A DNA stretch of 64,000 nt from an uncultured Collinsella sp. (GCA_900541245.1 UQIS01000001.1:25495-89494), one strand, 5' to 3'; positions 10,772-27,803 are shown, counted from the stretch's first letter. Notes: a model not told the origin generated them from the letters alone. Made by a program: numbers and translations.

Positions 10772-11116
10772 GCGAACTCCCCCTTTAGCTAACTACAGTG
10801 TTTGCAGGGAGATGTTACCGCATCGTTTCGTCGACGTGTTCGAGACCGTCTCCATAATTGGCGATTTTTACGTTCGTGCAATTCGGCGAGCGGCTTGATT
10901 TCCTCGACAGACGATGCTTTTGACACATATGGCCCCGCCGTCGCCGACCGCGCGATTGTCGCTTGAAAAAAGTTGGAGTATTTTTTGCCGCCTTTTACCT
11001 GCGGAGACACCAATCCGTCAAGCATTTGGTCAGAAATTGGTCAAGTATCGGCTGATACCGTCGGCGTCGACAGCCAAAACCGATAGAAGTTTTGGCCCAG
11101 AAGCAGGGAGGTTCCC

Positions 11117-11413
11117 ATGGCATATTACTGGCCCCAGTACGGCATCGCCATCGAAGTCGACGACGATCCCCATCTCCTGCCTTTCGACGAAGAGGCATTC
11201 CCCGATACGACGGTCTACCACGTTACCACCGATGTGATCTGCGACCCCGAGTCGTTCTCGGCGCTCGCCCACCACATCGCGCATATCCACGACATCGAGC
11301 TCCCTCCCGACTTCGAAGAGCTCGTCTACTCGCGCCGCCTGATGCTTCACATGCTCTTTGGAGCGGACCCGTCCACCTTTGCGCGCATCTATACCGCCAA
11401 GGATGCCGCATGA
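11117..11413 (+). CDS. hypothetical 98-aa protein; weak resemblance to a DUF559/Vsr-like endonuclease core
   Basis: GGGAGG RBS 6 nt upstream of the ATG. The motif YGIAIEVDDDPH resembles the core strand of DUF559 domains. The stop overlaps the next gene's start (ATGA). Confidence 0.35.
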   Translation: MAYYWPQYGIAIEVDDDPHLLPFDEEAFPDTTVYHVTTDVICDPESFSALAHHIAHIHDIELPPDFEELVYSRRLMLHMLFGADPSTFARIYTAKDAA

Positions 11414-11919
11414 GCGCGAAGAAGCCACCCCACTTTGCAGGCCTGGGTCGTCGCAAGAAGCTCATCGTTGCCTGCTTGGCCATCGTCTGTGCCCTTGTCG
11501 CCGTAGGACTATACGTTTGGCAGTCGCAGCCCGTACCCGAGGCGGGCGCTTCGGTTACGACGGCCGAGGGCAAAACGCGCCAGGAAATCCAAGATGAGCT
11601 CGACGCCATCGTCCGCGACAACATGATGACGATTTCGGTCGCGCCGGTCGCTCAGCTGCAGGAGGACGGCAAACTGCGCGTCAACGTGCAAAACGTCCAA
11701 GACAATAAATTTCCCCAGCGATTCCGCGTCATCCAAAACGACGAGACCATGTACGAATCCGGTGTGGTCGAGACCGGCAAGACAATCGAGACGTGCCCCG
11801 CCGGCGACATCAAAGAAGGCGAGGCGTACATCGAGATCCAGGCACTCGATGCAAAGACCCTCGACAGCCACGGCAATCCGACACGTGTCAAGGTACGGGT
11901 TGAGCAAACCGAGAACTAG
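11410..11919 (+). CDS. membrane-anchored hypothetical protein (N-terminal TM, extracytoplasmic domain)
   Basis: Internal ATG (MSAKKPPHFAGLGRRKKLIVACLAIVCALVAVGLYVW...) overlaps the previous stop. The Arg-rich N-terminal extension in the ORF track is implausible. Confidence 0.45.
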   Translation: MSAKKPPHFAGLGRRKKLIVACLAIVCALVAVGLYVWQSQPVPEAGASVTTAEGKTRQEIQDELDAIVRDNMMTISVAPVAQLQEDGKLRVNVQNVQDNKFPQRFRVIQNDETMYESGVVETGKTIETCPAGDIKEGEAYIEIQALDAKTLDSHGNPTRVKVRVEQTEN

Positions 11920-12008
11920 CCTTCCGGCCGACACGGCACCGCATGCAATTCACCAGCATTCGTCCAATCATCGCGGGGACGGCCCGCGGCGAATAGAAAG
12001 GAACGACC

Positions 12009-12608
12009 ATGGACATCACCAGGAACATGAACGGAGTCAGAGCGCTCGTCGTGGGCACAGGGCTCGCGCTCGCGCTCGCAATGGGCGCCGCCCCGACGCC
12101 AGCTATGGCAGCCGGGCGCGTTGGAACCACGAAGGTAATGGTCAGGACCGAGATCGACAACGTTGAGTTCAAAGTTCCGACGGTTATTCCCTTCGTCGCC
12201 AAGGCCGACGGCACGCTTCAGGGCCCCTCAGAAGACGCGACCACCATCGACAATCATTCGGCCTACGGCATCCATGTCACCAACATGAAGATCGACGCCA
12301 TGAACACCTGGACCATTGCCGCCGACGCCAAGGCCGGAACCGCGCAGAACTCCATCGACTTTAAGGTCGGCCCCGACGGCGCGCTCCAGAACGCCAGCGC
12401 CGCCGCGCAAGGGACGGGCCTCGATCTTTCCAAGAATGCAGCCTTCGACATGGGCTACCAGGGCATTGCCGGCGGCACGGACAAAATCAAGCTCAAGACA
12501 AGCGGAAACGTCGCCCGCGTCACGCGCGACATCTTCCGCGTAACCGGCGAAGGCGATCAGGTTGCGACGATCACCTGGACGGTCGAGCCCGGTGCGCACA
12601 CGGCATAA
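12009..12608 (+). CDS. secreted WxL-like domain protein (CscB/CscC-like)
   Basis: Sec signal peptide (LALALAMGAAPTPAMAAGRV). Two W-x-(I/V) motifs near the C-terminus (NTWTIAAD, ITWTVEPG), as in WxL domains. Confidence 0.45.
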   Translation: MDITRNMNGVRALVVGTGLALALAMGAAPTPAMAAGRVGTTKVMVRTEIDNVEFKVPTVIPFVAKADGTLQGPSEDATTIDNHSAYGIHVTNMKIDAMNTWTIAADAKAGTAQNSIDFKVGPDGALQNASAAAQGTGLDLSKNAAFDMGYQGIAGGTDKIKLKTSGNVARVTRDIFRVTGEGDQVATITWTVEPGAHTA

Positions 12609-12873
12609 GGCCGTCGCCCTGGCCGCCGCCGTCAGCATCCTAGCGTTTGGGCCAGCCATGGCCTTTGCCCAGCAAGAACAGGCGCAGGCCGCCACGCAAG
12701 TGACGGTCGACCTCTCGGAGCTCGACCGCGGCGACCGCGAGGAACCGTTGGCGCAGACAGGCGACAGACGATGGCTCTTGGCAGCAGGCGCCACAGCAGC
12801 AGGCGCGGGAACCGCCGGCCTCGGTCTGCACATCAAACGCAGCCAGAAACAAAACACGGACAGGCCGCACTAA
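12562..12873 (+). CDS. small cell-wall-anchored protein with LAQTG sorting signal (CscD-like)
   Basis: Signal-peptide-like N-terminus (RTRHKAVALAAAVSILAFGPAMAFA). C-terminal LAQTG, then a hydrophobic stretch (WLLAAGATAAGAGTAGLGL) and a basic tail (KRSQKQ). Overlaps the 3' end of the preceding ORF, so the exact start is uncertain. Confidence 0.45.
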   Translation: MRRSPGRSSPVRTRHKAVALAAAVSILAFGPAMAFAQQEQAQAATQVTVDLSELDRGDREEPLAQTGDRRWLLAAGATAAGAGTAGLGLHIKRSQKQNTDRPH

Positions 12874-12891
12874 ATTAGCTAAGGAGACCCC

Positions 12892-14322
12892 ATGGCATCG
12901 AAGAACCTTTTGCCCGTCGTCGCACTCTGCGGCGCGCTCGCAACCGGAACGCCTGTCGCCGCTTGGGCGACTCCCGTCATGGCAGACTCCTTACCAGTAG
13001 CCCTAAGTTCCGCACCAAATCCGTCGAGCGCCATTGCGTGCGAGCGTTTTTCGATCGCACAGGCCGTGATCTCAACCTCGGGATGCCTTCGTCGTAATAC
13101 GGACGGCTCGATAGTCGTGGATATCAAGCGTTCGAACAAGGCAAACGGCTCCCAGGCGGGGTGCGCCGTCTGCACGTGGCGCTCGGTTGTGCTCGATGCA
13201 GATGGCGATCCATGCAATTTAGAGCTGCGCATCGACATCGCTTCGGTCGATGACTCGGCGAACGGAGCGAAGGTCGCCTTCGACGGTGCGTTTTTCGAGA
13301 AAGGAGGCGGTATATGTCTGGGCTGCGCCGCCGCGAATGCAGACGATGCGCAGCCCACCCTCTCATTCACGGCATCGTTGCGGCTGACCAAAGCCGGTAC
13401 CGATGTTATCGCGGCGGGAGAAGCGTCCCTGCTGTTCTACGCCGTCAGCACCAAAGACACAGACGCTCATTTCGAGAAGCCAGCCGGATCACTCAGCCTT
13501 ACACGAGGGATAGAGGCAGGCCCTATTGAAATCGATGCCCACGCGCAAAGCAGGCAACGCATTCTTGCCGACCCGGCGCTTCTCGAAATGGAGTGGAACG
13601 GATCCGGAGCCATCGGAATTCTCCCCTCCGCGTTTGACGCCAAGACGCTTCCCCCAAACGACGAACCCATCAACGCAACCATACAAGAAGAGAGCGCGGA
13701 CAAAGAAGCAGGTGCGGGCGACACGCCGTCGCCGACAAACAGCGTCCCAGCTTCTCTCGAAGCGCCGAATGAGCCCGCTGCCGATCCAAACGATCCCGAG
13801 CTCGCGGACAGTCTGGGGCTTGCTGATCCTCAAGAGATCGATGAAGGTAACTGCTGCGTGCTTGCCGCGCTCGACCACACAGAGGTCATCGACGCTGCGA
13901 ACATCGAAGTTGCCGCCGCCAATCAGCCCGTCCGCAAGTCGGCTATCATCGCATTTCCTGAATCCATCGAAGTCGTCTTTTTGCCATCGGGCGAGGTCGT
14001 GGCCCCAACACTGCTCACCTTGTTGGGCGCCAAGAATACTCGAAACGAAATTAAAAAGGTCACAGTTGTCGACCCTGCAACCACCGCCAAGCTGCGTCTA
14101 TACGCCGTTGCTCCAGACGGAGGCAAGACCTTGGAATTCGATGGCGACACACTCCTGGCCTGGCGACGTCTGGACATTATGCAAGACGTCTCGTATCAGA
14201 TCGAACTCGAAGGGTTTGATCGTGCCCGCGATGCCAATATCATCGCCGCGGCTATTGAATCCCCACAGCGGCTTATGATACTGCGCTTTGAATACTATCC
14301 CTATGTCCCGACAACCACCTGA
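12892..14322 (+). CDS. secreted hypothetical protein, 476 aa
   Basis: AAGGAG RBS. N-terminal signal peptide (LLPVVALCGALATGTPVAAWA). Ala/Asp/Pro-rich acidic linker in the middle. No recognisable catalytic motif. Confidence 0.5.
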   Translation: MASKNLLPVVALCGALATGTPVAAWATPVMADSLPVALSSAPNPSSAIACERFSIAQAVISTSGCLRRNTDGSIVVDIKRSNKANGSQAGCAVCTWRSVVLDADGDPCNLELRIDIASVDDSANGAKVAFDGAFFEKGGGICLGCAAANADDAQPTLSFTASLRLTKAGTDVIAAGEASLLFYAVSTKDTDAHFEKPAGSLSLTRGIEAGPIEIDAHAQSRQRILADPALLEMEWNGSGAIGILPSAFDAKTLPPNDEPINATIQEESADKEAGAGDTPSPTNSVPASLEAPNEPAADPNDPELADSLGLADPQEIDEGNCCVLAALDHTEVIDAANIEVAAANQPVRKSAIIAFPESIEVVFLPSGEVVAPTLLTLLGAKNTRNEIKKVTVVDPATTAKLRLYAVAPDGGKTLEFDGDTLLAWRRLDIMQDVSYQIELEGFDRARDANIIAAAIESPQRLMILRFEYYPYVPTTT

Positions 14323-14440
14323 GGCTTAAATGCCGCGCATCATTCCTAATACCACTTATATAACGTATTAGATGAGTCGCGATGTACCTCGCATTTCGTT
14401 CTGCTACGATTGCCACGTTGGCATCAATACAGGAGGGCTC

Positions 14441-15157
14441 ATGCCGGGCTTGGGAACAATCATCAACGTTGTGCTTTTAGTTGCGGGCGGTCTTTTGGGA
14501 TTAGCGGGCGGCCGCTTCATTACACCGCGCATCCAAGACACGCTCATGAAAGCATCGGGGCTGTGCGTCCTGTTTATCGGCCTTGGCGGCACCATGCAAA
14601 AGATGCTCCTTATCGATGGGAAGGCGCTAGCGACCACCGGCACCACCATGCTCATCGTCTCGTTCGCCCTCGGCTCGCTCATCGGCGAGGCCATCAACTT
14701 GGAGGCCGCCATCGAGAACCTTGGCGAATGGCTCAAGCGCAAAACCGGCAGCGAGGGCGATAACGAGTTCACCATCGCGTTTGTCTCGTCTTCACTCTCC
14801 GTGTGTATCGGCGCCATGGCCATTGTGGGATCGATCCAGGACGGTCTGCTCGGTGACTGGTCAACGCTTGCCCTGAAAGGCGCATTGGACTGCATCATCG
14901 TCTGCACCATGACGGCGTCGCTTGGCCGCGGCTGCATTTTCTCCGCCCTGCCCGTCGCCGTGTTCCAGGGGACGATCACGCTGTTTGCCGGCGCACTCTC
15001 CCCCATCATGACTACGGCAGCCCTCGACAGCCTTTCGCTCGTAGGCTCCATGCTCATCTTCTGCGTCGGCGTCAACCTCATCCGTCCTCAGACCTTCCGC
15101 ACGGCCAATATGCTCCCCTCCGTCGTCATCGCCGTCATCTACGCCCTCCTGTTCTAA
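14441..15157 (+). CDS. DUF554-family membrane protein
   Basis: An internal ATG preceded by AGGAGG gives MPGLGTIINVVLLVAGGLLG..., typical of a DUF554 N-terminus. Glycine-rich polytopic membrane protein. Confidence 0.55.
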   Translation: MPGLGTIINVVLLVAGGLLGLAGGRFITPRIQDTLMKASGLCVLFIGLGGTMQKMLLIDGKALATTGTTMLIVSFALGSLIGEAINLEAAIENLGEWLKRKTGSEGDNEFTIAFVSSSLSVCIGAMAIVGSIQDGLLGDWSTLALKGALDCIIVCTMTASLGRGCIFSALPVAVFQGTITLFAGALSPIMTTAALDSLSLVGSMLIFCVGVNLIRPQTFRTANMLPSVVIAVIYALLF

Positions 15158-15245
15158 ATCTATCTACGCAGCAGTATCTCGAACACCTGTTTGATGCTGT
15201 GCTATGATATGAGGTCACCGAAGCTGCGTTAGGAGAGGAGGAGCG

Positions 15246-17006
15246 GTGGCCGACCAGGACATCAAGATGCTCATCGAGCGCATTATGGCCGAGGCCCGGA
15301 CCCATCAGTCCGCCCGCTTCTCAAACGAAATCTACGCAGACGAGCCGATTCTCAAAACCGGCCGACAGATGCAGAATTTCCTCCCCGACCAATACCGCAA
15401 GATGCGCGAGATATCGCGCTGGCAGGATGACCCCAAGGGCGGCGCGGGCCGCTGGCTATCGGAGGCCGAGCTTTTCTACCGCCAAGGCTTGCTGATGGCC
15501 GACTTTGAGGACGACTGTCCCTACAACGGCACCTTTAAGTCGTACTTTCCCACCTACAATGCCATGAGCGACCGGCAGTTGCGCGGCTACTTTACCTGGC
15601 GTGCCCAAGTGCGCCGCGGAACCGTCGAGGAAACGTCTACATCCTTTGCCTTTCTGTATCTCTATGAGCTGATTTGCGGCATTGGCATAGATGATCCGCT
15701 CGAAGGTTTTAACAAGATCAAGGCCTTTTGGGATGTCTATCGCGCCTTCGAGCCCGGCATCGACCGGTTTGCGCGCGTGTGGCTGCAGGATTACGCCGTT
15801 TTCCACGGACTCGACCCCAAGCTACTTCGCGACTCTAAAACCGTCATGTTCGATAACGCCCTTATCGAGCTACGCCGCGCAGCGCGAGACCTTGTACCAG
15901 CACCGGCACCGTCCGGCCAGACCCCTAAGCGTCGCAAAACCTCCGAGCCCACGCTCCCCCTTCCGCCCGATGAGGTGCGCGAGGAGCGACTCATGGCCGC
16001 CATCAACGCCCTCTCCACGTACAACCTAAGTAACTCGCGGCTCGACCGCAGCCACCACCGCGATCTGCGCCACGTGGCGTGCGCCGTGTATGTCCGTATG
16101 GCGCGCTACTATGACACGCACCGAAAGACCGACATCGTGGCGAGCTTATTTGGGGAGGAGACGGCCATGCCCTACACCATGTTTGCCTCGGCCGTATTCT
16201 TTTCGCCCGAGCGCCACGAGGACTGCGAATATCGCCTGGACCCCATTCACATCTACCGCTGCCAAAACGGCTTTTGGGAATGCATGCGAATTCACGGCAG
16301 CAGGCAAAAAAGCAGCAAGCTTGGTGAGATGATGCGCGCCTGCGACCAACGCCTACGCCTGGCCCTAGACCCCACCCACCCCCTGAAGGAGGAGAAGGTC
16401 CCCAAATATCTGGCCAAGATCATCGATGACGAGATCATGGCATGGCTTTCGTGGGACGCCGCACACCAGCCCATCAAGATCGATATCGATTTGAGCCAGC
16501 TGGGGCACATTCGGAGCGCCGCCGCGCAAACGCGCGAAGCGCTTTTGATCGATGAGGAACGCGAGGACGACGCATCCGCAGAAGCCGAGGCAGCGGACTC
16601 AGGGCAACCGGAAGCCGAGCCCGTAACCGACGCGATTGTCGAACCGGTCGTGGCACCCATTCGGCAGGACTTGACCGACGAGCCGACCATATCCACCGAA
16701 CAGTTTGGTGTCGTGGCACCGCTTCTCGCGCCGACGCCCGCGTTCGCAGCTGCTGCACCCGCTGACGCCACAAACGAACTCGCGCCCGCCGCAGATGCCT
16801 TCCTTCGCGCACTGCTCGAGCAAAACGCAGCGCAAGCGACATCGGCAGTGGCGCACTCGGGACAGAGCGAGGACATGCTCGTCGATACCATCAACGAGGC
16901 GCTCTTTGACCTGGTGGGCGACACCGTAATTGAATTTAGCGCGGCAGGGCCGCAGATTATCGAGGACTACGAAGCAGACGTGAGAGGATACCTAGACCAT
17001 GAGTGA
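15246..17006 (+). CDS. TerB-like (TerB-N/TerB-C) domain protein; Shango SngA-like
   Basis: GTG start preceded by AGGAGAGGAGGAG. 586 aa with an acidic low-complexity C-terminal third. Function inferred from the conserved three-gene context (ATPase plus Lhr-like helicase directly downstream, ATGA coupled). The TerB-domain assignment is by architecture, not a verified motif. Confidence 0.5.
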   Translation: MADQDIKMLIERIMAEARTHQSARFSNEIYADEPILKTGRQMQNFLPDQYRKMREISRWQDDPKGGAGRWLSEAELFYRQGLLMADFEDDCPYNGTFKSYFPTYNAMSDRQLRGYFTWRAQVRRGTVEETSTSFAFLYLYELICGIGIDDPLEGFNKIKAFWDVYRAFEPGIDRFARVWLQDYAVFHGLDPKLLRDSKTVMFDNALIELRRAARDLVPAPAPSGQTPKRRKTSEPTLPLPPDEVREERLMAAINALSTYNLSNSRLDRSHHRDLRHVACAVYVRMARYYDTHRKTDIVASLFGEETAMPYTMFASAVFFSPERHEDCEYRLDPIHIYRCQNGFWECMRIHGSRQKSSKLGEMMRACDQRLRLALDPTHPLKEEKVPKYLAKIIDDEIMAWLSWDAAHQPIKIDIDLSQLGHIRSAAAQTREALLIDEEREDDASAEAEAADSGQPEAEPVTDAIVEPVVAPIRQDLTDEPTISTEQFGVVAPLLAPTPAFAAAAPADATNELAPAADAFLRALLEQNAAQATSAVAHSGQSEDMLVDTINEALFDLVGDTVIEFSAAGPQIIEDYEADVRGYLDHE

Positions 17007-18303
17007 TACCGCATCCGCAGCACCCCGCGTGCCCAAGCGCGTCGCTGCCGTCATTCTCAACTCGCTCAAGGGCGGCGTGGTCCCGCGCATCGGCCTTCCC
17101 TACATTACCGTAGGGCGCGAGGTCGAGATCCGCGCCCTGCTCACCGATCTGAGTCTCATCGCCGACGGTGGTGCGAGCTTCCGCTTTCTGGTCGGTCGTT
17201 ACGGCGCCGGCAAGAGCTTTTTGCTCCAGACCATCCGCACGCACGCCATGGGTGAGGGATTCGTCGTCGCCGATGCAGACTTATCCCCCGAGCGCCGTCT
17301 GCAGGGCGGGCAGGGGCAGGGCCTTGCCACCTACCGCGAGCTCATACGCAATATATCGACCAAGACGCGCCCCGAGGGCGGTGCGCTCAACCTTATTCTT
17401 GATCGCTGGGTCGCCTCGTACGCCGACGTCGACGAGTCGGTCGTCAATGCCCAACTGGCCCCGCTCGAGGAAATGGTCCACGGCTTCGACTTCACCCGCA
17501 TGCTCCGCCGCTATCGCACGGCCGTATCCGAGGGCGACGAAGAAGCCATGAGCCGCGTGACCAAATGGATCCGCGGCGAATACCGTACCAAGAGCGAGGC
17601 TCGCGCCGAGCTGGGCTCCTCGACCATCATCAGCGATGACGACTGGTACGACTACGTTAAGCTCATCGCGCGTTTTTTGGTCTGCAGCGGCTACAAGGGT
17701 ATGTTGGTGCTCATCGACGAGCTCGTGAATCTGTATAAGATTCCCAACGCGATCACGCGCCAGTACAACTACGAGAAGATCCTGACCATGTACAACGACA
17801 CACTCCAGGGCAAGGCGCAGTACCTGGGCATGATCATGGGCGGCACGCCAACCTCCATCGAAGACCGCCGCCGCGGCGTGTTCTCCTACGAGGCCCTGCG
17901 CAGCCGACTCGCTCAAGGCCGCTTTGCACGCGAGGACCTTAAGGACATGCTCGCGCCCATCATCCGTCTGCAGCCACTCACCTACGAGGAGCTGCTGGTG
18001 CTGATTGAAAAACTCATGCAAATTCACGCCGGCTACTTTGGCTGGACGCCCACGCTTACCGAGAACGACTTGGTGGACTTCCTCAAGATCGAGTTCGGTC
18101 GTGTGGGAGCCGACACACATCTGACGCCGCGTGAAGTCATTCGCGACTTTATCGAGCTGCTCGACATCCTATGCCAGAACCCCGACGCCAACGTAGCCGA
18201 GCTGCTGCAAAGCGTCGGCGGCGACGCGCTGGTGCCGGCAGCAGCAACAGGCGACACCGGCACCGCAGGCGGCGACCGTAACTTCGCCGAATTCACCATC
18301 TAA
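16999..18303 (+). CDS. P-loop NTPase (DUF2791/BrxD-like ATPase); Shango SngB-like
   Basis: Walker A (GRYGAGKSFLL), Walker B (MLVLIDELVN). 434 aa. ATGA start/stop overlap with the upstream gene. Confidence 0.7.
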   Translation: MSDTASAAPRVPKRVAAVILNSLKGGVVPRIGLPYITVGREVEIRALLTDLSLIADGGASFRFLVGRYGAGKSFLLQTIRTHAMGEGFVVADADLSPERRLQGGQGQGLATYRELIRNISTKTRPEGGALNLILDRWVASYADVDESVVNAQLAPLEEMVHGFDFTRMLRRYRTAVSEGDEEAMSRVTKWIRGEYRTKSEARAELGSSTIISDDDWYDYVKLIARFLVCSGYKGMLVLIDELVNLYKIPNAITRQYNYEKILTMYNDTLQGKAQYLGMIMGGTPTSIEDRRRGVFSYEALRSRLAQGRFAREDLKDMLAPIIRLQPLTYEELLVLIEKLMQIHAGYFGWTPTLTENDLVDFLKIEFGRVGADTHLTPREVIRDFIELLDILCQNPDANVAELLQSVGGDALVPAAATGDTGTAGGDRNFAEFTI

Positions 18304-18304
18304 C

Positions 18305-18345
18305 CTGCCAAAAAGGGACAGGTTTATTTTGGCAGGTTTTATCTG
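18305..18345 (+). terminator. hairpin between sngB-like and helicase genes (attenuator or terminator candidate)
   Basis: CCTGCCAAAA / TTTTGGCAGG inverted repeat followed by TTTTATCT. Confidence 0.3.
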
Positions 18346-18377
18346 GGCGAACGTTGAGACTGTAATGCAGCAAGCCG

Positions 18378-20864
18378 TTGCCAGCCGCGTTGAGAGATTC
18401 GTTTTTGAGAGGAGGCCCCGTGAACGCCTTTGACCGCTACGCCCCGTTTATCCAAGACTTCATCTACTCCCACGATTGGGAGAGCCTGCGCTCTATCCAG
18501 GTTGCGGCGGCAGACGCCATCTTTAACACACAAGACAATGTGCTCCTAACGGCATCCACAGCTTCCGGCAAAACCGAAGCGGCCTTCTTTCCCATCCTGA
18601 CCGAGTTTTGGGAGAACCCGCCCGCAAGCGTTGGTGCCCTCTACATTGGCCCCCTCAAGGCACTCATCAATGATCAGTTCGTCCGTCTCAATGACCTGTG
18701 CGAAGAGGCCGATATCCCTGTCTGGCACTGGCATGGCGATGTCTCGCAGTCGCACAAGGCTAAGCTCATCAAAAAACCGAACGGCATCTTGCAGATTACG
18801 CCCGAGTCACTCGAGGCGCTCTTAATCCATAAGCACATGGCGATCCCGCACATGTTTTGCGACCTGCGCTATGTGGTCATCGATGAGGTCCACTCGCTCA
18901 TGCGCGGCGACCGTGGCGGGCAGACGCTCTGCCTTATCGAGCGACTCTCGCGCATGGCCGGCGTGCAACCTCGACGCATTGGCCTTTCGGCCACCATCGG
19001 CGACCCCGAGCGCACGGGTGCCTTTCTCTCACAGGGAACGGGGCGCGACTGCGTTATCCCACGCTTTGAAGAGCCGCGCCGCGTGTGGCGCATCTCCATG
19101 GAGCACTTCTACAACTCGGGCCCCCAGGCACAGCAACGGGGATTCATGGGCACAGGTCCTCAAGAGGCCGAAGTGCTTGCGTGCGAGCGCATCGAGGCGG
19201 CGGCATCCGCGGCACTGCCCGCCGGCGCCCAAGACATGCGTCACAGCGGACAGCTCACACAAGAGGAGCGCCGTCAACGTCGTGAGCGGGCACGGGGCAA
19301 GGCCACTCCCAAGGACCGCCAAACTTCCTCGGCCCCCGAGGGCGAAGTCGACATCCCGCGAGCGACCGAGCAGGCGCTTCTCAGCCCCACCGACACAGCA
19401 CCAGACAACGCCGACCCCGGCATGGGCTATATCTTCGAACACACCCGCGGCCGCAAGTGCCTGGTCTTTGCCAACTCGCGCGAAGAGGCAGAGGCCGTAT
19501 GCTCCATGCTGCGTTGCTACTGTGAGAGCCGGCACGAGCCCGACCGCTTTCTCATCCACCACGGCAATCTTTCGGCATCGCTGCGCGAGACGGCAGAAGA
19601 GCTCATGCGCGACGAGGAACAGGCACAAACGACCGTCACCACCTCTACGCTGGAGCTCGGTATCGATATCGGCCGTCTGGAGCGTGCGTTTCAGATCGAC
19701 GCGCCGTTTACCGTCAGCTCTTTTTTGCAGCGAATGGGCCGCACGGGGCGCCGCGATCTTCCGCCCGAGATGTGGTTCGTCATGCGCGAGGAAGAGCCCG
19801 AGCCGCGCACGATGATGCCCGAGACCATCCCGTGGAAGCTCCTGCAAGGCATCGCGCTCGTACAACTCTATCGCGAGGAAAAGTGGGTCGAGCCGCCTGA
19901 GCTCGATCGACTCCCCTACAGTCTGCTCTATCACCAGACCATGTCGACGCTTGCCAGCACCGGAGAGCTCACGCCGGCCGAACTTGCCCAGCGCGTGCTC
20001 ACGCTCAGCTATTTCCACCGTGTCTCGGCAGACGATTACCGTGTGCTGCTACGCCACCTCATTAAGATCGACCATATCCAGGTCACCGAAGGTGGCGGGC
20101 TCATCGTGGGTCTCGCGGGCGAGCGCATCATTAACAACTTTAAGTTCTACGCCGTATTCCAGGAAAACGAGGAGTTCACCGTTCGCAGCGAGTCGGCCGA
20201 GTTGGGCACGATCGTCAATCCGCCACCGCCCGGCGAGCGCATCGCCATCGCCGGACACTGCTGGATTGTCGAGGAAGTGGACTGGAAGCGACACACCGTC
20301 TTTGCCACGCAAGTCAAAGGTCGTGTGCCGGCATACTTTGGCGACTGCCCCGGTGACATCAATACACACGTACTCGAACGCATGTGCCAAGCGCTCAACG
20401 AGCACGCAGCATATCCGTACCTCATGGGTAACGCACGGGCCCGCTTGGCGCAGGCTCGCCATACGGCCGAGATTTCGGGCGCGGGGACCAAGCCACTCAT
20501 TAACCTGGGCGGCGACACCTGGGTGCTCTTCCCCTGGTTGGGCAGCTACGCCTTTTTGGCACTCGAGCGCATGCTCAAGATTAAATGTGCCGCGGAGCTG
20601 GGCCTTCGCGGACTCGACCCGTCACGCCCGTACTTTATGCAGTTTAAAATGAAGGCCGACGAGGAGACGTTCTTTGAGGTGCTCGCCGCCGAGGCCGAGA
20701 AAGACTTCGATCCCATCGAGCTCGTCTATCCCGGCGAGGTGCCTTATTTTGACCGCTACGACGAGTTTGTTCCCGAAGAGCTCGTGCGCAAAGGCTTCGC
20801 CGAAGGCGTGCTCGACATCGAGGGCATGAAGCAGCGCGTCCTCAGCTGGCGCGACCACGCCTAA
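18378..20864 (+). CDS. Lhr-like DEAD/DEAH (DExH) helicase; Shango SngC-like
   Basis: Motif I (TASTASGKTEAAF), motif II (VVIDEVHSL), motif III (GLSATIGD), helicase-C region and a long C-terminal extension as in Lhr. An alternative GTG start at 18420 has a better RBS (GGAGG). Confidence 0.8.
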   Translation: MPAALRDSFLRGGPVNAFDRYAPFIQDFIYSHDWESLRSIQVAAADAIFNTQDNVLLTASTASGKTEAAFFPILTEFWENPPASVGALYIGPLKALINDQFVRLNDLCEEADIPVWHWHGDVSQSHKAKLIKKPNGILQITPESLEALLIHKHMAIPHMFCDLRYVVIDEVHSLMRGDRGGQTLCLIERLSRMAGVQPRRIGLSATIGDPERTGAFLSQGTGRDCVIPRFEEPRRVWRISMEHFYNSGPQAQQRGFMGTGPQEAEVLACERIEAAASAALPAGAQDMRHSGQLTQEERRQRRERARGKATPKDRQTSSAPEGEVDIPRATEQALLSPTDTAPDNADPGMGYIFEHTRGRKCLVFANSREEAEAVCSMLRCYCESRHEPDRFLIHHGNLSASLRETAEELMRDEEQAQTTVTTSTLELGIDIGRLERAFQIDAPFTVSSFLQRMGRTGRRDLPPEMWFVMREEEPEPRTMMPETIPWKLLQGIALVQLYREEKWVEPPELDRLPYSLLYHQTMSTLASTGELTPAELAQRVLTLSYFHRVSADDYRVLLRHLIKIDHIQVTEGGGLIVGLAGERIINNFKFYAVFQENEEFTVRSESAELGTIVNPPPPGERIAIAGHCWIVEEVDWKRHTVFATQVKGRVPAYFGDCPGDINTHVLERMCQALNEHAAYPYLMGNARARLAQARHTAEISGAGTKPLINLGGDTWVLFPWLGSYAFLALERMLKIKCAAELGLRGLDPSRPYFMQFKMKADEETFFEVLAAEAEKDFDPIELVYPGEVPYFDRYDEFVPEELVRKGFAEGVLDIEGMKQRVLSWRDHA

Positions 20865-20891
20865 GACCAGTCCTTTTTGGGACGGGGAGAC

Positions 20892-21770
20892 TTACTTGTC
20901 GTGAAGGACGGTGCCGAGGAAGTCGGTGTCGAAGGGCACAGCTTCGGCAAAGGCGTAGTCGCCGTCGCTGGCGATGAGCAGATAATTCTCCTCGCCGCCG
21001 AACTCTGCATCGCCACATGGGACCACCCAGGCGTGGGCGAACACCTCGAGCGCCGTGGCGGCGCAATCGCGCAGGAACGTTACGTCGCTCCCCTCGTTTG
21101 CGCTCACGACATTGGCAACGTAGATACCCCCGGGGTTCAGGCTGCCTCGCACCAAACGCAACGCCTCAACCGTCGCCAGCTCGCGTACGGGCTCGACACC
21201 GCCAAAGCAATCGCTCACGACCACGTCGTAGCGACGATGGCCCACGCTCGTCACACCCAAATACGAGCGAGCCTCAGCGGTAATCACCCGCAAGCGGTCG
21301 CCCACCGCACGCTCCAGCTCGTCCAGGTAGAACCAGCGGCGCGCTAGGCGCGTAATCTCTCCGTCATACTCGATAACGTCCATGCACAAGTCCTCGTGCG
21401 ACATCAGCGCGAACTTGGGATAGGCAAACCCGCCGCCGCCCAGCATAAGCATGCGGTCGATACCGTGACCGTAAGCGTCGCGCATCGCATCCTCGGCCTC
21501 AAACACGTCGTCAAACGAACGATAGTACGTAAAGACGGGCTCCGCCCAACGCTCGCCAACGTAGCTTGCACTTTGGTAGACGCCGCCTTGTACCAATACG
21601 CGGACTTCGTCGCCGCCCTCGTCGTGCACGCGCTTCACACGCGCCAACCCATTGCGGGTTCGCGCAACCTGCAGACAGGCAGCACGAACAGCGACGGCGG
21701 CCGCACCAAGCGCCGCGGCTCCCAGAGCAACGCCGGCAACGACGCCGGCAGAAACACTCGGCTTGTTCAT
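20892..21770 (-). CDS. spermidine synthase-like (class I SAM-MTase fold) protein with N-terminal TM anchor
   Basis: N-terminal hydrophobic segment. MLMLGGGGFAYP glycine-rich motif and VVEYDGEI, typical of polyamine aminopropyltransferase-like proteins. Immediately follows elp3. Confidence 0.55.
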   Translation of the reverse strand: MNKPSVSAGVVAGVALGAAALGAAAVAVRAACLQVARTRNGLARVKRVHDEGGDEVRVLVQGGVYQSASYVGERWAEPVFTYYRSFDDVFEAEDAMRDAYGHGIDRMLMLGGGGFAYPKFALMSHEDLCMDVIEYDGEITRLARRWFYLDELERAVGDRLRVITAEARSYLGVTSVGHRRYDVVVSDCFGGVEPVRELATVEALRLVRGSLNPGGIYVANVVSANEGSDVTFLRDCAATALEVFAHAWVVPCGDAEFGGEENYLLIASDGDYAFAEAVPFDTDFLGTVLHDK

Positions 21771-23678
21771 CTAGAGCTCCTTTTGCAGATAAAGGCCATA
21801 GTCATAAAATCCAAGATGGCGATAGTACTCGCGCGTACCAATCGCGCTGATCACGTTGATGCGCGCATAGCCCGCGTCCCGAGCAATATGGCACGCACGC
21901 TCCACCAGCGACCGTCCCAATCCATGGTGCTGGGCTGCCTGGCCTTGATCCCCCACGCGCGCCGCCATGCCATACACGTGTACCTCGCGAATCATCGCCT
22001 CGTCCGGCATCGTCGGCAACTCGTCCGCATGTGCGGCAACAAAAGCGCGAACGGGCAGCGACAGACGCAAAAAGCCGGCGATCTTGCCTTCGGGCGTCAC
22101 CCACTGCAAAAAGCGTTCACGCGTCACCGGCGTCTCGTACGCCACCTCCTCATCAAGAGAAAGCTCATCCAAGTCGGCACCCGCCGTACTGATCTCGCGA
22201 TAGCGAATCTCGCGCACCGTCGCACCGTCACCCCGAGCAGCCAGGCGGTTCTCAACGAGCTGACGCAGGTTGGGTTTCTTGTTGCCCACCATAATGTCGT
22301 CGGAGCTAAAGTCGCGGATCATGCGGCTGATGCGGCAGAACGCCGGCGTCACCACGATGTCGTCGGCCAGCACATCGAGCAGTTCTTCCTCGGTATAGGG
22401 GCGCCACTCGCCGCGCTCATAGCGGCCCACCAGACGCGAGCCCTCGATGAGCGCGCACGGGTAGACCTTGACCTCGTCGGGCATAAAGGCCCCCTCGGTC
22501 ATAAAGCGCTCGTAGTCGCGCTTGTCCCCCTCGGGCGTGGCGCCCAGCAAGTTGAGCATAAAATGCGCGTGGATCTTAAAGCCAAACAGACGCGCAAGCG
22601 AAAACGCCCGCTCGATCTGAGCCACCGAAATGCGACGCTCGTTGATATCGAGCAGGTGCTGGTTGAGGCTCTGGATGCCCATCTGAATCTTGGTGCAACC
22701 CAGGCGGCGGATAAGCGTGAGCGCCTGGGGCGTCACGGCATCGGGGCGCGTCTCGATAACGAGCCCCACCACGCGATGCTTCGCCGTCTCGTTGATGCGC
22801 TGCTGACGCTCAAGCTCCTCCATCGTTGCCGTCTGCCACTCAGTGACCTCGCCCCACGGCGTACCGGGACCGTACAGACGACGCACCGCACGGTTATAGC
22901 CGCCCACGGCAGCATCCACACGCCCCTGCTCGTCGGCAACGCCGGCAGCAAGCTCGACCTCGTCTGTCGCAATGCCGGCGGCCCGATAGCGCTCACGGCG
23001 CTCCGCTACCACAGGCGGCAGGGCATCGGCGGGAGCGTCATCGAGCAGACGCCCCGCCTCGGCACGGCTGATGCCCGGACGTGCCAACATGGGGTTGGCC
23101 GCCACGCCGGCGACGGCATCGTCATTGAGTGCACGGAAAAGCTCCGACATAAACCATGTCTGATAGCCTTCCGGATAGTCGCTCCAGGTACCGCCAAGCA
23201 CAATGAGCTCGATCTTATCGGTCGCATGCCCCATCTGCGAAAGCGCGGTCAGGCGAGCGCTCACCTGCAGATACGGGTCAAAGCAATTTTGCTCCGCACG
23301 GGCGCATGCCGGCTCGGCGTGCAGATAGCTCTTGGGCATGCGCAGATCGTTGGGGCAAAACAGGCAATCGCCCGAGCATGGCCAGGGCTTGGTAATGACG
23401 GTAATGGTCGCCACGCCCGAGGCCGTTCGGCGCGGCTTCATACGCAGGACCTGCAACAGTTGACGCTCCAGATCGGAATCGACATTCCACGCAGCCCACC
23501 GAACCGGCTCCTCACGTTTAACCCGCTGGTAGAACGGCAGCAGACGGCGCTTGGCCAAATCGCGTTTGTCGGCACCCTCACGGCGCGCCTCGGCATGTAT
23601 CAGTTTGACGAGCGCTTTGTCGTCCACGGTCTCGCCGCGACGCAGGGCCTCGAGTATGTTCAAGATAATCTGTTCCAT
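21771..23678 (-). CDS. elp3: Elp3-family radical SAM/GNAT acetyltransferase
   Basis: CSGDCLFC radical-SAM cysteine motif near the N-terminus and a C-terminal GNAT domain (RHLGFYDYGLYLQKEL). 635 aa. Confidence 0.8.
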   Translation of the reverse strand: MEQIILNILEALRRGETVDDKALVKLIHAEARREGADKRDLAKRRLLPFYQRVKREEPVRWAAWNVDSDLERQLLQVLRMKPRRTASGVATITVITKPWPCSGDCLFCPNDLRMPKSYLHAEPACARAEQNCFDPYLQVSARLTALSQMGHATDKIELIVLGGTWSDYPEGYQTWFMSELFRALNDDAVAGVAANPMLARPGISRAEAGRLLDDAPADALPPVVAERRERYRAAGIATDEVELAAGVADEQGRVDAAVGGYNRAVRRLYGPGTPWGEVTEWQTATMEELERQQRINETAKHRVVGLVIETRPDAVTPQALTLIRRLGCTKIQMGIQSLNQHLLDINERRISVAQIERAFSLARLFGFKIHAHFMLNLLGATPEGDKRDYERFMTEGAFMPDEVKVYPCALIEGSRLVGRYERGEWRPYTEEELLDVLADDIVVTPAFCRISRMIRDFSSDDIMVGNKKPNLRQLVENRLAARGDGATVREIRYREISTAGADLDELSLDEEVAYETPVTRERFLQWVTPEGKIAGFLRLSLPVRAFVAAHADELPTMPDEAMIREVHVYGMAARVGDQGQAAQHHGLGRSLVERACHIARDAGYARINVISAIGTREYYRHLGFYDYGLYLQKEL

Positions 23679-23775: not shown

Positions 23776-24678
23776 TCACTCCGGATCAAACGACATGTCG
23801 CCCGAACCGACCTCGAAACGATACGTAGCAGACTTATCGCCGTTGTCGAATTCAAGATTCAATATGGTCTCGCCATCGTAGCCAAGCGGAAGGAAATCGC
23901 TCTCGAAGTCACCGCTGCCCACGGTGAGGCTCGCCTTAAAGCCCGTAGAGTTCGGAACCGTCATCTCCACATCGCCCGAGTCCACGCTTACGTCCATCGA
24001 CTTCGCGGGGGCCTGGTAGAGCTCGAACGTCACATCGCCCGAACCGACCTCAGCACTGAGCGCATCAGTCACGCTGCCCGCAAACTCTACATCTCCCGCA
24101 CCCAGGAAAAGGTCGAAACCATCACAGGTGACACCGGCAATCTGCAGATCACCCGAGCCCACGTGCGCGTTGACTCCCTTCAGATGTTCGGCAACACGGC
24201 GCGGCAGCTCGACCGTAACTGAGCGATCGATTGCCTTACCGTCATCACTTCCAAACTGGGAAACCTTGAGCGTCGAGTCCTCGACGGATGCGATGTTCTG
24301 CGTCGCGGCCTTGGAGGCATCCATACCATTGGCAACGCGTCCCCGCTCGATAACGCGAGCCTTGTTACCATCAATAACCTTGACGTCCACCGTAGCCGCA
24401 TCGATATCGAAATCGAGGTAGCGAAACTCATCGGCATCAAAGGTCGTACACGAAAGCTGCTGAGGCCGAGCGGAATAGTTACCGCCATCGTTCATAAAAT
24501 CGTCGTCATCAACCACATCGTCCATACCGGACAAGCCGGGTATAACATCGTCGAGATCCCACGGGCCATCAAAATGAATCAAAGTCCGCGAAACGCCAAA
24601 AACAAGCCCGATAATCAGTACAAACGCTCCGATGCCGACGCCCAGGCGCAGCTTGGATTCATGCGAAAGCTTCATCAT
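23776..24678 (-). CDS. DUF4097-family beta-repeat protein (YvlB-like putative adhesin) with N-terminal TM
   Basis: Repeated VGSGD/GAGD motifs (VGSGDLQ, GAGDVEF, VGSGDVTF, DSGDVEM, VGSGDFES, VGSGDMSF), characteristic of DUF4097. Confidence 0.7.
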   Translation of the reverse strand: MMKLSHESKLRLGVGIGAFVLIIGLVFGVSRTLIHFDGPWDLDDVIPGLSGMDDVVDDDDFMNDGGNYSARPQQLSCTTFDADEFRYLDFDIDAATVDVKVIDGNKARVIERGRVANGMDASKAATQNIASVEDSTLKVSQFGSDDGKAIDRSVTVELPRRVAEHLKGVNAHVGSGDLQIAGVTCDGFDLFLGAGDVEFAGSVTDALSAEVGSGDVTFELYQAPAKSMDVSVDSGDVEMTVPNSTGFKASLTVGSGDFESDFLPLGYDGETILNLEFDNGDKSATYRFEVGSGDMSFDPE

Positions 24679-25397
24679 TCGTCACCTTCTTTGGCACATG
24701 GCTCAGCGGTGGCCGCGGTAGCCACGTCAGCATCAGGTTCCGCAGAAGTATCCTTCCCCTGGGCCCTGACCGCCACCGGTGCCGGACCAACCTGAATATC
24801 CCCGCGCGCCCAATCGCCATCGAGTGCACGCGCCACCCAGTGATAGATGGGAATCGTGAAGAAGATCAGCGCAGCAAAGGGGCCGGCACCAAACAGGAAC
24901 ATCAGTAAAAAGAACAGCAGCCAGCACACGGCCCAATACGGGAATGACTGGAACGGACCCTTCACCGGAGTCGGACCAGCCGCACCGGTACCCGTCACCT
25001 GAGCCGTCGCCGCATTGGCAGCCTGCGCACTCCAGCTTGCCGCCTGCGCCGCCTTGGCTGCCGCGTCACTTGCCTGCGTTGCCGCCTCGGTGGCGCGCGC
25101 CGCCGCCTCATGGGTGCGGGCGCGCTCTGCCGCCTCGGCCTCGCGCTGACGAGCGCGGTCCTCGTTCTCAAACTCGATATCGTCCTCAATCTCATCGCTC
25201 GGATTGAGCAGCTCGTCCAGACTCACACCATAGAGCTTGGCGAGCGAGATCAGGTTCTCGGTATCGGGCGAGCTCTCCGCACGCTCCCATTTACTAACCG
25301 CCTGGCGCGACAGCCCCAGCTTTCGCGCCAGCCCTTCTTGGCTAAAGCCCTTGCTGCGGCGAAGGTCGGCGAGCCGCTGCGCAGTTTCTACATTCAT
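24675..25397 (-). CDS. XRE-family HTH transcriptional regulator with C-terminal membrane domain
   Basis: Internal ATG with AGGAGG RBS gives MNVETAQRLADLRRSKGFSQEGLARKLGLSRQAVSKWERAESSP (HTH_XRE). C-terminal TM helices. 4-nt overlap with the downstream DUF4097 gene, a common PadR/XRE-DUF4097 pairing. Confidence 0.65.
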   Translation of the reverse strand: MNVETAQRLADLRRSKGFSQEGLARKLGLSRQAVSKWERAESSPDTENLISLAKLYGVSLDELLNPSDEIEDDIEFENEDRARQREAEAAERARTHEAAARATEAATQASDAAAKAAQAASWSAQAANAATAQVTGTGAAGPTPVKGPFQSFPYWAVCWLLFFLLMFLFGAGPFAALIFFTIPIYHWVARALDGDWARGDIQVGPAPVAVRAQGKDTSAEPDADVATAATAEPCAKEGDE

Positions 25398-25664
25398 GGT
25401 TCCTCCTATGTGATGCCAGCCGTGCCGCCGGACCGTTTTTGTTCTTAAGGCGCCTTGCACAGTTAAAAATCTATCCGCCACCGCCAAAAGCATGCCACCT
25501 ATTCTAGTGAGATTTTTGACAACTGGCGGTTGCGGGCACATATGAGCTGCGGAAATGTGTCCAAACAAAGCAATGAGCCGCAGCTCGGTTGTCCCCGTTG
25601 CGGCGTTAACGGTAGTATGGTCATACTGTTTATTCCGCACCGCCAACGGAGGGAGTTCCGCGCC

Positions 25665-27559: not shown

Positions 27560-27682
27560 CTAAGTGAGTAGACTTTTTTGCAATAGCCAAGCACAACCCG
27601 CATAACGAAAACTAAAACCGCAGATAGAACCCTTGTGCAAAATCCATGTGCTCGCGACATCGCAAAAAGTCTACTCACTTAG
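27560..27682. mobile_element. MITE-like element copy 1 (about 123 bp, 21-22 bp terminal inverted repeats)
   Basis: CTAAGTGAGTAGACTTTTTTGC at 27560-27581 and its reverse complement GCAAAAAGTCTACTCACTTAG at 27662-27682. The same TIRs recur at about 37279-37401 and 38698-38821. Confidence 0.6.
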
Positions 27683-27803
27683 CTGGCAACTGCACCAAAC
27701 GGCCGGGCAGAACGCCCATTTCCTGCATTTTCTTGCCTGCAAACGCATCGATGCGCCGCTACGCCATAATAGTTGGCGGACAATCGCGAGAGAAAGCAAC
27801 CAC

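Follow-up and report, generated by a model that had tools for sequence, protein, structure and literature searches.

A Shango locus at a fixed, island-free chromosomal site in Collinsella and its probable role in phage defense

Introduction

What does an anti-phage system do when it occupies one and the same place in the chromosomes of a whole bacterial genus? This question is raised by a 64,000-nt stretch of DNA from an uncultured Collinsella sp. (GCA_900541245.1 UQIS01000001.1:25495-89494), hereafter called the window, in which three adjacent genes encode relatives of SngA, SngB and SngC, the components of the Shango system. Shango acts against phages in Escherichia coli and Pseudomonas aeruginosa, with 10-100-fold effects on the efficiency of plating (EOP) (Millman et al., 10.1101/2022.05.11.491447; Johnson et al., 10.1101/2022.11.11.516204), and confers strong protection in liquid culture together with a modest EOP change and smaller plaques (Johnson et al., 10.1101/2022.11.11.516204). 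In these two species, it consists of accessory island genes lying in a variable hotspot such as cDHS1 and present in ~12% of strains.

By its profile matches, the Collinsella trio is a textbook Shango, callable automatically by PADLOC-type tools and belonging to an already known type of system. What is new is its island-free, fixed chromosomal site across related bacteria, and the combination of a slow-evolving engine with a fast-evolving adaptor. We consider it probable that the locus is a complete and functional Shango, fixed in the Collinsella chromosome, in which SngA would act as the sensor, SngB as the loader and SngC as the effector.

Three Genes of a Shango System

The open reading frames (ORFs) of the window include three co-directional genes on the + strand between 15246 and 20864, in agreement with a preliminary description of this DNA: sngA (15246-17006, GTG start, 586 aa), sngB (16999-18303, ATG start, 434 aa) and sngC (18420-20864, GTG start, 814 aa). 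That description had also proposed the Shango identity, which is borne out by the PADLOC models SngA, SngB and SngC, each being the top match of the respective protein over nearly its full length. Chance is excluded for the genes by hidden Markov model E-values of 1e-78 to 1e-275 and by ratios of nonsynonymous to synonymous substitution rates (dN/dS) of 0.03-0.13 across 55 sequences. The length of 828 aa given earlier for the helicase is that of the maximal ORF, which opens with a TTG (18378-20864), and not that of the likely product. The GTG at 18420 is most likely the genuine start because it lies 4 nt after GAGAGGAGG and because residue 1 then aligns with residue 1 of a Clostridium orthologue; the protein therefore has 814 aa, and the sngB-sngC spacer 116 nt.

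SngA matches its PADLOC profile at 5.6e-78 (aa 29-581 against profile positions 53-525 of 528). As foreseen, Pfam recognizes a TerB_N domain (2.4e-31; aa 65-195, nt 15438-15830) and a TerB_C domain (6.1e-16; aa 411-580, nt 16476-16985), the latter split by an acidic, Ala/Pro/Glu-rich linker predicted to be disordered (aa ~452-510). The TerB core domain PF05099 was not detected by Pfam in any of the trio proteins at E<=0.01; the name "TerB-like", applied to SngA, is therefore a literature shorthand. The AlphaFold2 model (mean predicted local distance difference test, pLDDT, 77.9) displays three confident modules with disordered linkers between them, the middle one being an alpha/beta module with no assigned family (aa ~243-410). 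No fold relative of this model was found in the PDB, and a PDB sequence search returned no solved relative of SngA or SngB. The TerB_N domain contains an invariant aromatic/basic motif, QLRGYFTWR (aa 111-119), plus a further conserved R. An invariant acidic cluster near NEALFD in TerB_C (aa 547-559: D547, N550, E551, D555 and D559, also E573 and D574) possibly binds metal. A representative search at the level of 50% identity clusters yielded 2516 clusters related to SngA at E<=1e-3 and 803 at E<=1e-30. Many Bacillota homologues (e.g., P0153, aa 1-~220) carry an extra conserved N-terminal region of ~150-200 aa that is missing in Collinsella SngA. This extension has no Pfam match, and a YjbR-like identity considered for it was dropped for lack of Pfam support.

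The domain names TerB_N and TerB_C are the sole reason to think of a chemical stress response of the tellurite-resistance (Ter) type. We find this explanation barely credible: PF05099 is missing, no Ter-family gene (TerD/TerC/TerZ/TerA-like) was found among the flanking ORFs scanned (6337-32322, with Pfam and PADLOC), the Shango-specific models match, and a test of Ter membership was negative. TerB-family annotations are also attached to the defense proteins BnzA of Bunzi and DinB of Dionysus, for which the mechanism is likewise unclear. Unlike in SngABC, the partners of the TerB domain in both systems are membrane or pore-forming proteins, and membrane surveillance is the role proposed for them. 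No transmembrane segment is predicted in SngA, SngB or SngC, SngA being soluble; this, together with the helicase partner, points to nucleic acid and not to the membrane.

SngB matches its own PADLOC model at 2.3e-169 (562 bits), followed by a full-length match to BrxD (3e-39, 133 bits). The expected ATPase character is upheld by Pfam PF10923 BrxC_BrxD (2.7e-149), which we take to be the former DUF2791, and the protein falls in no housekeeping family. Walker A (GRYGAGKS, aa 66-73, nt 17194-17217) and Walker B (MLVLIDE, aa 235-241, nt 17701-17721) are intact. SngB is accordingly described here as a BrxD-like P-loop ATPase that likely adopts an ORC/Cdc6-type AAA+ fold. A match to 7rdr in the PDB sequence search was rejected as a low-complexity artefact with no passing stretch.

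SngC gives the strongest match of the three (PADLOC SngC, 7.8e-275, 912 bits; aa 2-805 against profile positions 2-715 of 720), with BrxHI as second-best model over the whole length (1e-121, 405 bits). Pfam finds DEAD (7.5e-26) and Helicase_C (4e-18), and motifs I (SGKT), II (DEVH), III (SAT) and VI (QRMGRTGR) are intact. The domain parse assigns RecA1 to aa 1-215, RecA2 to aa ~336-460 and a BrxHI-like C-terminal region to aa ~461-814; a charged, low-complexity insert specific to the lineage lies at aa ~240-333 (nt 19137-19418). The closest solved structures belong to the repair helicases Lhr (5v9x, 6.7e-25, and 7lhl) and MrfA/YprA (6znp), with which SngC shares the DExH motifs; unlike in these enzymes taken whole, the likeness is confined to the core (~aa 11-213 and RecA2). 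For the C-terminal 354 aa, a sequence search of the PDB gave no match, and a WH_Lhr match is not significant (E 0.26). The earlier label "Lhr-like" fits the helicase core and goes no further. Similarly, the ligase-associated DEXH helicase model TIGR04121 of NCBIfam is the best partial match and covers the N-terminal core only (192 bits against a cutoff of 850), and no metallophosphoesterase nuclease or ligase gene lies near the trio among the flanking ORFs scanned. No NCBIfam model reaches its own cutoff for any trio protein, and none of the three has a sequence-detectable solved relative spanning its full length. The predicted structure of SngC is poor (pLDDT 52.7), with a shallow alignment of homologues that are 83-87% mutually identical; in this low-confidence model, the elements appear in the same order as in BrxHI. 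The latter combines a superfamily 2 (SF2) core with a winged helix-turn-helix (wHTH), a beta-barrel and an Lhr-CTD-like (C-terminal domain) part, the last three being DNA-binding modules, and is tightly linked to BrxD, a standalone ORC/Cdc6 AAA+ ATPase proposed to load BrxHI (PMC12839542, a comparative study of 2026).

Could SngB and SngC then be the BrxD and BrxHI left over from a type 2 BREX (Pgl) system, orphaned and by chance adjoining a TerB_N protein? SngB-BrxD and SngC-BrxHI are homologous from end to end, with E-values of 3e-39 and 1e-121, they likely have a common ORC/Cdc6-type AAA+ fold and helicase layout, and the two BREX genes are tightly linked in type 2 BREX; a loader-helicase relationship may be common to both pairs. 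Nevertheless, the Sng models are far ahead (562 against 133 bits for SngB, 912 against 405 for SngC), SngB remains at 134 bits with NCBIfam BREX_BrxD, below the equivalog cutoff of 350, and tests of BREX membership were negative. No BREX core gene (PglX methyltransferase, PglZ, BrxC or PglW) was found by Pfam and PADLOC among ORFs 6337-32322, ~10 kb on each side, and the partner of SngB-SngC is a TerB_N/TerB_C protein whose gene is coupled to sngB in nearly all loci. A BREX remnant is thus very improbable.

Compared with the Shango systems of E. coli and P. aeruginosa PA14, the Collinsella locus has three equivalent proteins in the same order and with the same domain content. It differs in its host, a Gram-positive gut actinobacterium, in its location in a fixed housekeeping block instead of a variable hotspot, in the ~70-90 aa low-complexity insert between the RecA domains of SngC, and in the 116-nt sngB-sngC spacer with its conserved hairpin. 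So far, the E. coli and P. aeruginosa homologues are the only ones known to protect against phage.

A Fixed Chromosomal Site

Each scan kept its best 80 matches, which biases the evidence for a core locus toward close relatives. Within this scope, all 80 Collinsella species genomes kept carry the trio in one gene order and in one housekeeping block, as does the window, which belongs to the Collinsella aerofaciens group. A gut metagenome scan was seeded with the flanking DUF554 gene instead of the Shango genes: all 46 contigs with enough downstream sequence carry sngA, sngB and sngC, two apparent exceptions being error-ridden contigs. One locus (L090) was considered as a pseudogenised Shango and rejected; its flanking genes are frame-broken too, which indicates an error-prone assembly.

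On the left, the block comprises genes for electron transfer flavoprotein (ETF) subunits, an FAD-linked oxidase, three secreted proteins and the DUF554 membrane protein. On the right are a spermine-synthase-like gene and an ELP3-like radical-SAM/GNAT gene, both converging on sngC, then a helix-turn-helix (HTH)/DUF4097 pair, TrmB and a DUF3516 helicase. Relatives of 62-70% GC, in which SngA is 43-60% identical, have the trio in a matching block, from ETF and FAD-oxidase genes to the spermine-synthase-like, radical-SAM, TrmB and DUF3516 genes; from this synteny alone, we take them to be other Coriobacteriia. The order sngA-sngB-sngC recurs in the Coriobacteriia relatives L172-L174 and is departed from in L175 and L168, where sngC is displaced or missing. 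In L175 (9001-19664), ~5 kb with Fe-hydrogenase-like, unknown and ABC transporter genes separate sngAB from sngC. In L168/L169 (9001-12199), sngA-sngB are followed by purL, and the ~5 kb of contig after sngB hold no sngC. In L170/L171, from a relative of 66% GC, a uracil phosphoribosyltransferase (UPRTase) gene (12398-13045) is inserted between sngB and sngC. The sngC genes of these two loci are both frame-broken, at different positions, through possible assembly error or decay.

A first homologue search retrieved near-identical Collinsella proteins only, and the distant homologues were reached by querying with a Clostridium plasmid copy. As had been anticipated for a genuine system, the trio co-occurs in distant genomes in identical order: on a Clostridium estertheticum plasmid and a Paenibacillus megaplasmid, in the chromosome of [Eubacterium] yurii, and in metagenome-assembled genomes of an Anaerolineaceae bacterium and of one labelled Proteobacteria. 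Mobility is evident in the Bacillota branch, which is found on a plasmid beside a relaxase and IS110. SngC proteins of the Bacillota type share 83-87% identity even between unrelated taxa, whereas their partner SngA proteins share 45-64%. In two Bacillota loci, an ABC-type (ATP-binding cassette) ATPase gene starts 5-17 nt after sngC (L081 12948-15494; L083 13906-15384). The Clostridium protein (848 aa) includes a UvrA DNA-binding domain (8e-14). This ATPase may be the fourth gene of a Bacillota Shango subtype and has no counterpart in the window.

Selection and Divergence

Substitution rates were estimated from 55 Collinsella sequences with a DNA identity to the window of 90-96% and a dS of ~0.3. 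Purifying selection is strong on each of the three genes, with dN/dS of 0.029 for SngB, 0.038 for SngC and 0.13 for SngA. Within SngA, the folded domains have a value of 0.04 and the linker region (aa 441-530) one of 0.44; in the insert region of SngC (aa 216-335), which is likewise relaxed, it is 0.13. Within Collinsella, no other protein of the neighborhood is as conserved as SngB, and this holds also in a set that was not picked by SngB similarity. In the relatives of 62-70% GC, SngB (72-83% identity) and SngC (73-83%) surpass the flanking housekeeping proteins (50-78%) in conservation. Among six distant loci, identity amounts to 25-55% for SngA, 52-85% for SngB and 44-84% for SngC. SngA diverges about twice as fast. 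Because SngB and SngC are more constant than SngA in shared loci, they form a slow-evolving engine to which a fast-evolving SngA is joined. This faster divergence suggests that SngA is the variable part that would set specificity.

Such conservation invites another explanation, namely that the SngABC proteins of Coriobacteriia serve mainly in housekeeping genome maintenance, perhaps acting like Lhr and MrfA on R-loops or RNA:DNA hybrids, on stalled forks or on damaged DNA, with any anti-phage effect being secondary. The fixed syntenic block in the 80 Collinsella genomes kept, in the 46 of 46 DUF554-seeded contigs and in the relatives of 62-70% GC speaks for it, as do a conservation of SngB and SngC above that of flanking housekeeping proteins and their dN/dS of 0.03-0.04. 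The nearest solved relatives of SngC are repair helicases, and a UvrA-like ATPase gene lies 3' of sngC at the Clostridium locus. Anantharaman, Iyer and Aravind, in 2012, reportedly first read this gene association as one of DNA processing. Against this stand the protection of E. coli and P. aeruginosa from phage by Shango homologues, the evident mobility of Shango in Bacillota (plasmid, relaxase, IS110) and the skew of the core evidence to close relatives. Moreover, sngC is lost or displaced in some Coriobacteriia relatives, which argues against an essential function. On balance, a mainly housekeeping role is a possibility to be kept in mind, which we nonetheless judge unlikely.

Gene Junctions and Expression

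The sngA and sngB genes are translationally coupled, as judged from their overlap. It had been described as a 4-nt ATGA overlap, which is wrong: the two genes share 8 nt, ATGAGTGA, with the sngB ATG at 16999-17001 and the sngA TGA at 17004-17006. All 55 aligned Collinsella sequences have this overlap, and one of 4-8 nt is found in nearly every locus examined.

The junction between sngB and sngC is built differently. The hairpin with a T-tract reported between the two genes is real: it extends over 18302-18344 (+ strand) and consists of a perfect 12-bp stem (18302-18313/18327-18338) with a 13-nt loop, followed by the U-rich tract TTATCT, the stem overlapping the sngB stop codon. A 50-nt stretch containing it folds at about -16 kcal/mol for window-like variants. 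A consensus terminator scan does not call the hairpin because its loop exceeds 8 nt, and no Rfam family matches anywhere in 14300-21900, the hairpin included. Over the 55 Collinsella sequences, the stem pairs are mostly Watson-Crick; the pair 18307/18333 is G-C in 37, G-U in 8, A-U in 1 and an A.C mismatch in 9. Nucleotide diversity (pi) is 0.03-0.06 in stem, loop and T-tract, versus 0.14 in the downstream spacer and 0.15-0.18 at third codon positions. The loop shows no less conservation than the stem, so that the sequence may be important in addition to the structure. The hairpin is a plausible, unproven candidate for a partial terminator or attenuator, or for an RNA-stability element, in this spacer.

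In evolution, the operon is loose at the junction of sngB with sngC, where the spacer measures 12 nt in L172, 52 in L174, 516 in L173 and 116, with the hairpin, in Collinsella. The conserved hairpin and this loose junction lend indirect support to a separate or attenuated expression of sngC. A search of the spacer for a sigma-70-type promoter revealed no convincing -10 element.

Upstream of sngA, a putative extended -10 element, TGcTATGAT (15200-15208, + strand), is read 38 nt before the start codon. The surrounding segment (15185-15215) is nearly invariant in the 55 Collinsella sequences, with a pi of 0.018 versus 0.069 for the whole intergenic region and ~0.15-0.18 for third codon positions. 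The element, which a two-hexamer consensus scan does not call, is a candidate promoter of the sngAB(C) operon.

A Proposed Mode of Action

In the mechanism that we propose, SngA would be the sensor or adaptor that binds SngB and is made in a fixed ratio with it. SngB, as an ORC/Cdc6-type AAA+ switch, would respond to a phage-derived cue by the ATP-driven loading or activation of SngC on nucleic acid. The effector would be SngC, a DExH translocase of the Lhr/Ski2-like kind that carries additional DNA-binding modules and would unwind or strip phage replication or transcription intermediates; the hairpin would allow its level to be set separately from that of SngAB. The outcome would be an interference with the phage instead of its destruction, in keeping with the modest protection (10-100-fold) that Shango is reported to give. 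None of the trio proteins has a nuclease, toxin or membrane domain recognizable by Pfam, PADLOC or NCBIfam scans.

Alternatively, phage sensing could cause SngAB to release SngC onto the host chromosome or host RNA, thereby stopping the growth of the infected cell. Such abortive infection would be in line with the lack of any obvious self/non-self discrimination, no methyltransferase or guide having been found, and with the strong liquid protection accompanied by modest EOP and smaller plaques, a pattern also produced by growth-arrest systems. It is at odds with the absence of a toxin, nuclease or membrane-disrupting domain, and the window has no direct bearing on it. We regard abortive infection as quite improbable.

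Several observations weigh against a functional, phage-directed SngABC as proposed here. First, the locus lacks the usual marks of defense genes: the trio lies in no defense island and has no mobile genetic element genes nearby, its GC content (0.58-0.62) is ordinary for the window, and PADLOC finds no defense gene among the flanking ORFs beyond generic HTH/helicase-domain matches and a weak mad2. Second, the folded domains of SngA, with their dN/dS of 0.04, reveal no diversifying selection within Collinsella. Third, no close relative of SngB was found in a viral contig scan, and tblastn at E<=1e-5 found none in phage genomes. Fourth, the relatives that possess SngAB and no adjacent SngC are unexpected if SngC is the sole effector. 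Finally, the view of SngB-SngC as a loader-helicase pair is borrowed from a bioinformatic proposal for BrxD/BrxHI and not from biochemistry, and the searchable literature contains neither a mechanism for any Shango nor an experiment on any Actinomycetota Shango.

Neighboring Genes

The DUF554 integral membrane protein gene (14372-15157, + strand; Pfam 1.2e-64, strongly hydrophobic), located immediately before sngA in the same orientation, recurs as its neighbor in Coriobacteriia and is mentioned here purely as context. It adjoins sngA in all Collinsella loci and in the distant relatives L170, L171 and L173, is absent or displaced in L172, L174 and L175, and is absent at the Bacillota Shango loci. 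Farther upstream, three co-directional genes (11092-14322, + strand) encode secreted or surface proteins with signal-peptide-like N-termini and no Pfam or PADLOC match. The largest of them (12892-14322, 476 aa) has divergent alleles with 56-59% identity in some Collinsella genomes, versus a median of 96%.

Downstream of the trio, the ELP3-like radical-SAM/GNAT gene (21771-23678) abuts without a gap a gene for a 292-aa protein (20892-21770), both on the - strand. Homologues of the latter are annotated as spermine-synthase-like, and its only PADLOC match is a weak one to mad2 (6.8e-06). Converging on sngC, this operon is a conserved right flank across Coriobacteriia. Four Collinsella loci (L029, L036, L040 and L041; ~13900-15900, equivalent to ~20865-20891 of the window) contain an insertion of ~2 kb between sngC and the spermine-synthase-like gene, and several other Collinsella genomes have ~75 bp extra at that spot. 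The insertion of L029, which is the one inspected, holds a gene for a transporter of the major facilitator superfamily (MFS) type (399 aa). Next comes an XRE-type HTH gene that overlaps a DUF4097 "toastrack" gene (23776-25646, - strand), the product of the latter being the most variable conserved neighbor, with a median identity of 76% among Collinsella (range 69-99%). A second large SF2 helicase (27633-30485, + strand; 950 aa, DEAD plus DUF3516 at 1.9e-183) is encoded 7 kb downstream as part of the conserved housekeeping flank, and its matches to the HamB and SngC models are generic helicase-domain matches only.

Concluding Remarks

The locus adds a complete Shango copy from a major actinobacterium of the human gut. 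Its deep set of natural variants tells constrained regions, namely the folded SngA modules, SngB as a whole and the SngC core, from free ones, the two low-complexity linkers. They also bring out a modular layout, in which a fast SngA is coupled to a very slow SngB/SngC engine, an engine common to BrxD/BrxHI of type 2 BREX.

An island-free syntenic position across genera is unusual for defense, and raises the question of whether Shango has a cellular role in these bacteria or is a defense system turned into a stable core gene set. It is conceivable, though unlikely and rather doubtful to us, that the Coriobacteriia Shango is an ancient, vertically inherited core complex whose main job is nucleic-acid maintenance at R-loops, forks or damage, and not accessory immunity. 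If this were true, the mobile defense Shango of Proteobacteria and Bacillota would be a co-opted maintenance machine, or else the Coriobacteriia version would be a domesticated defense system.

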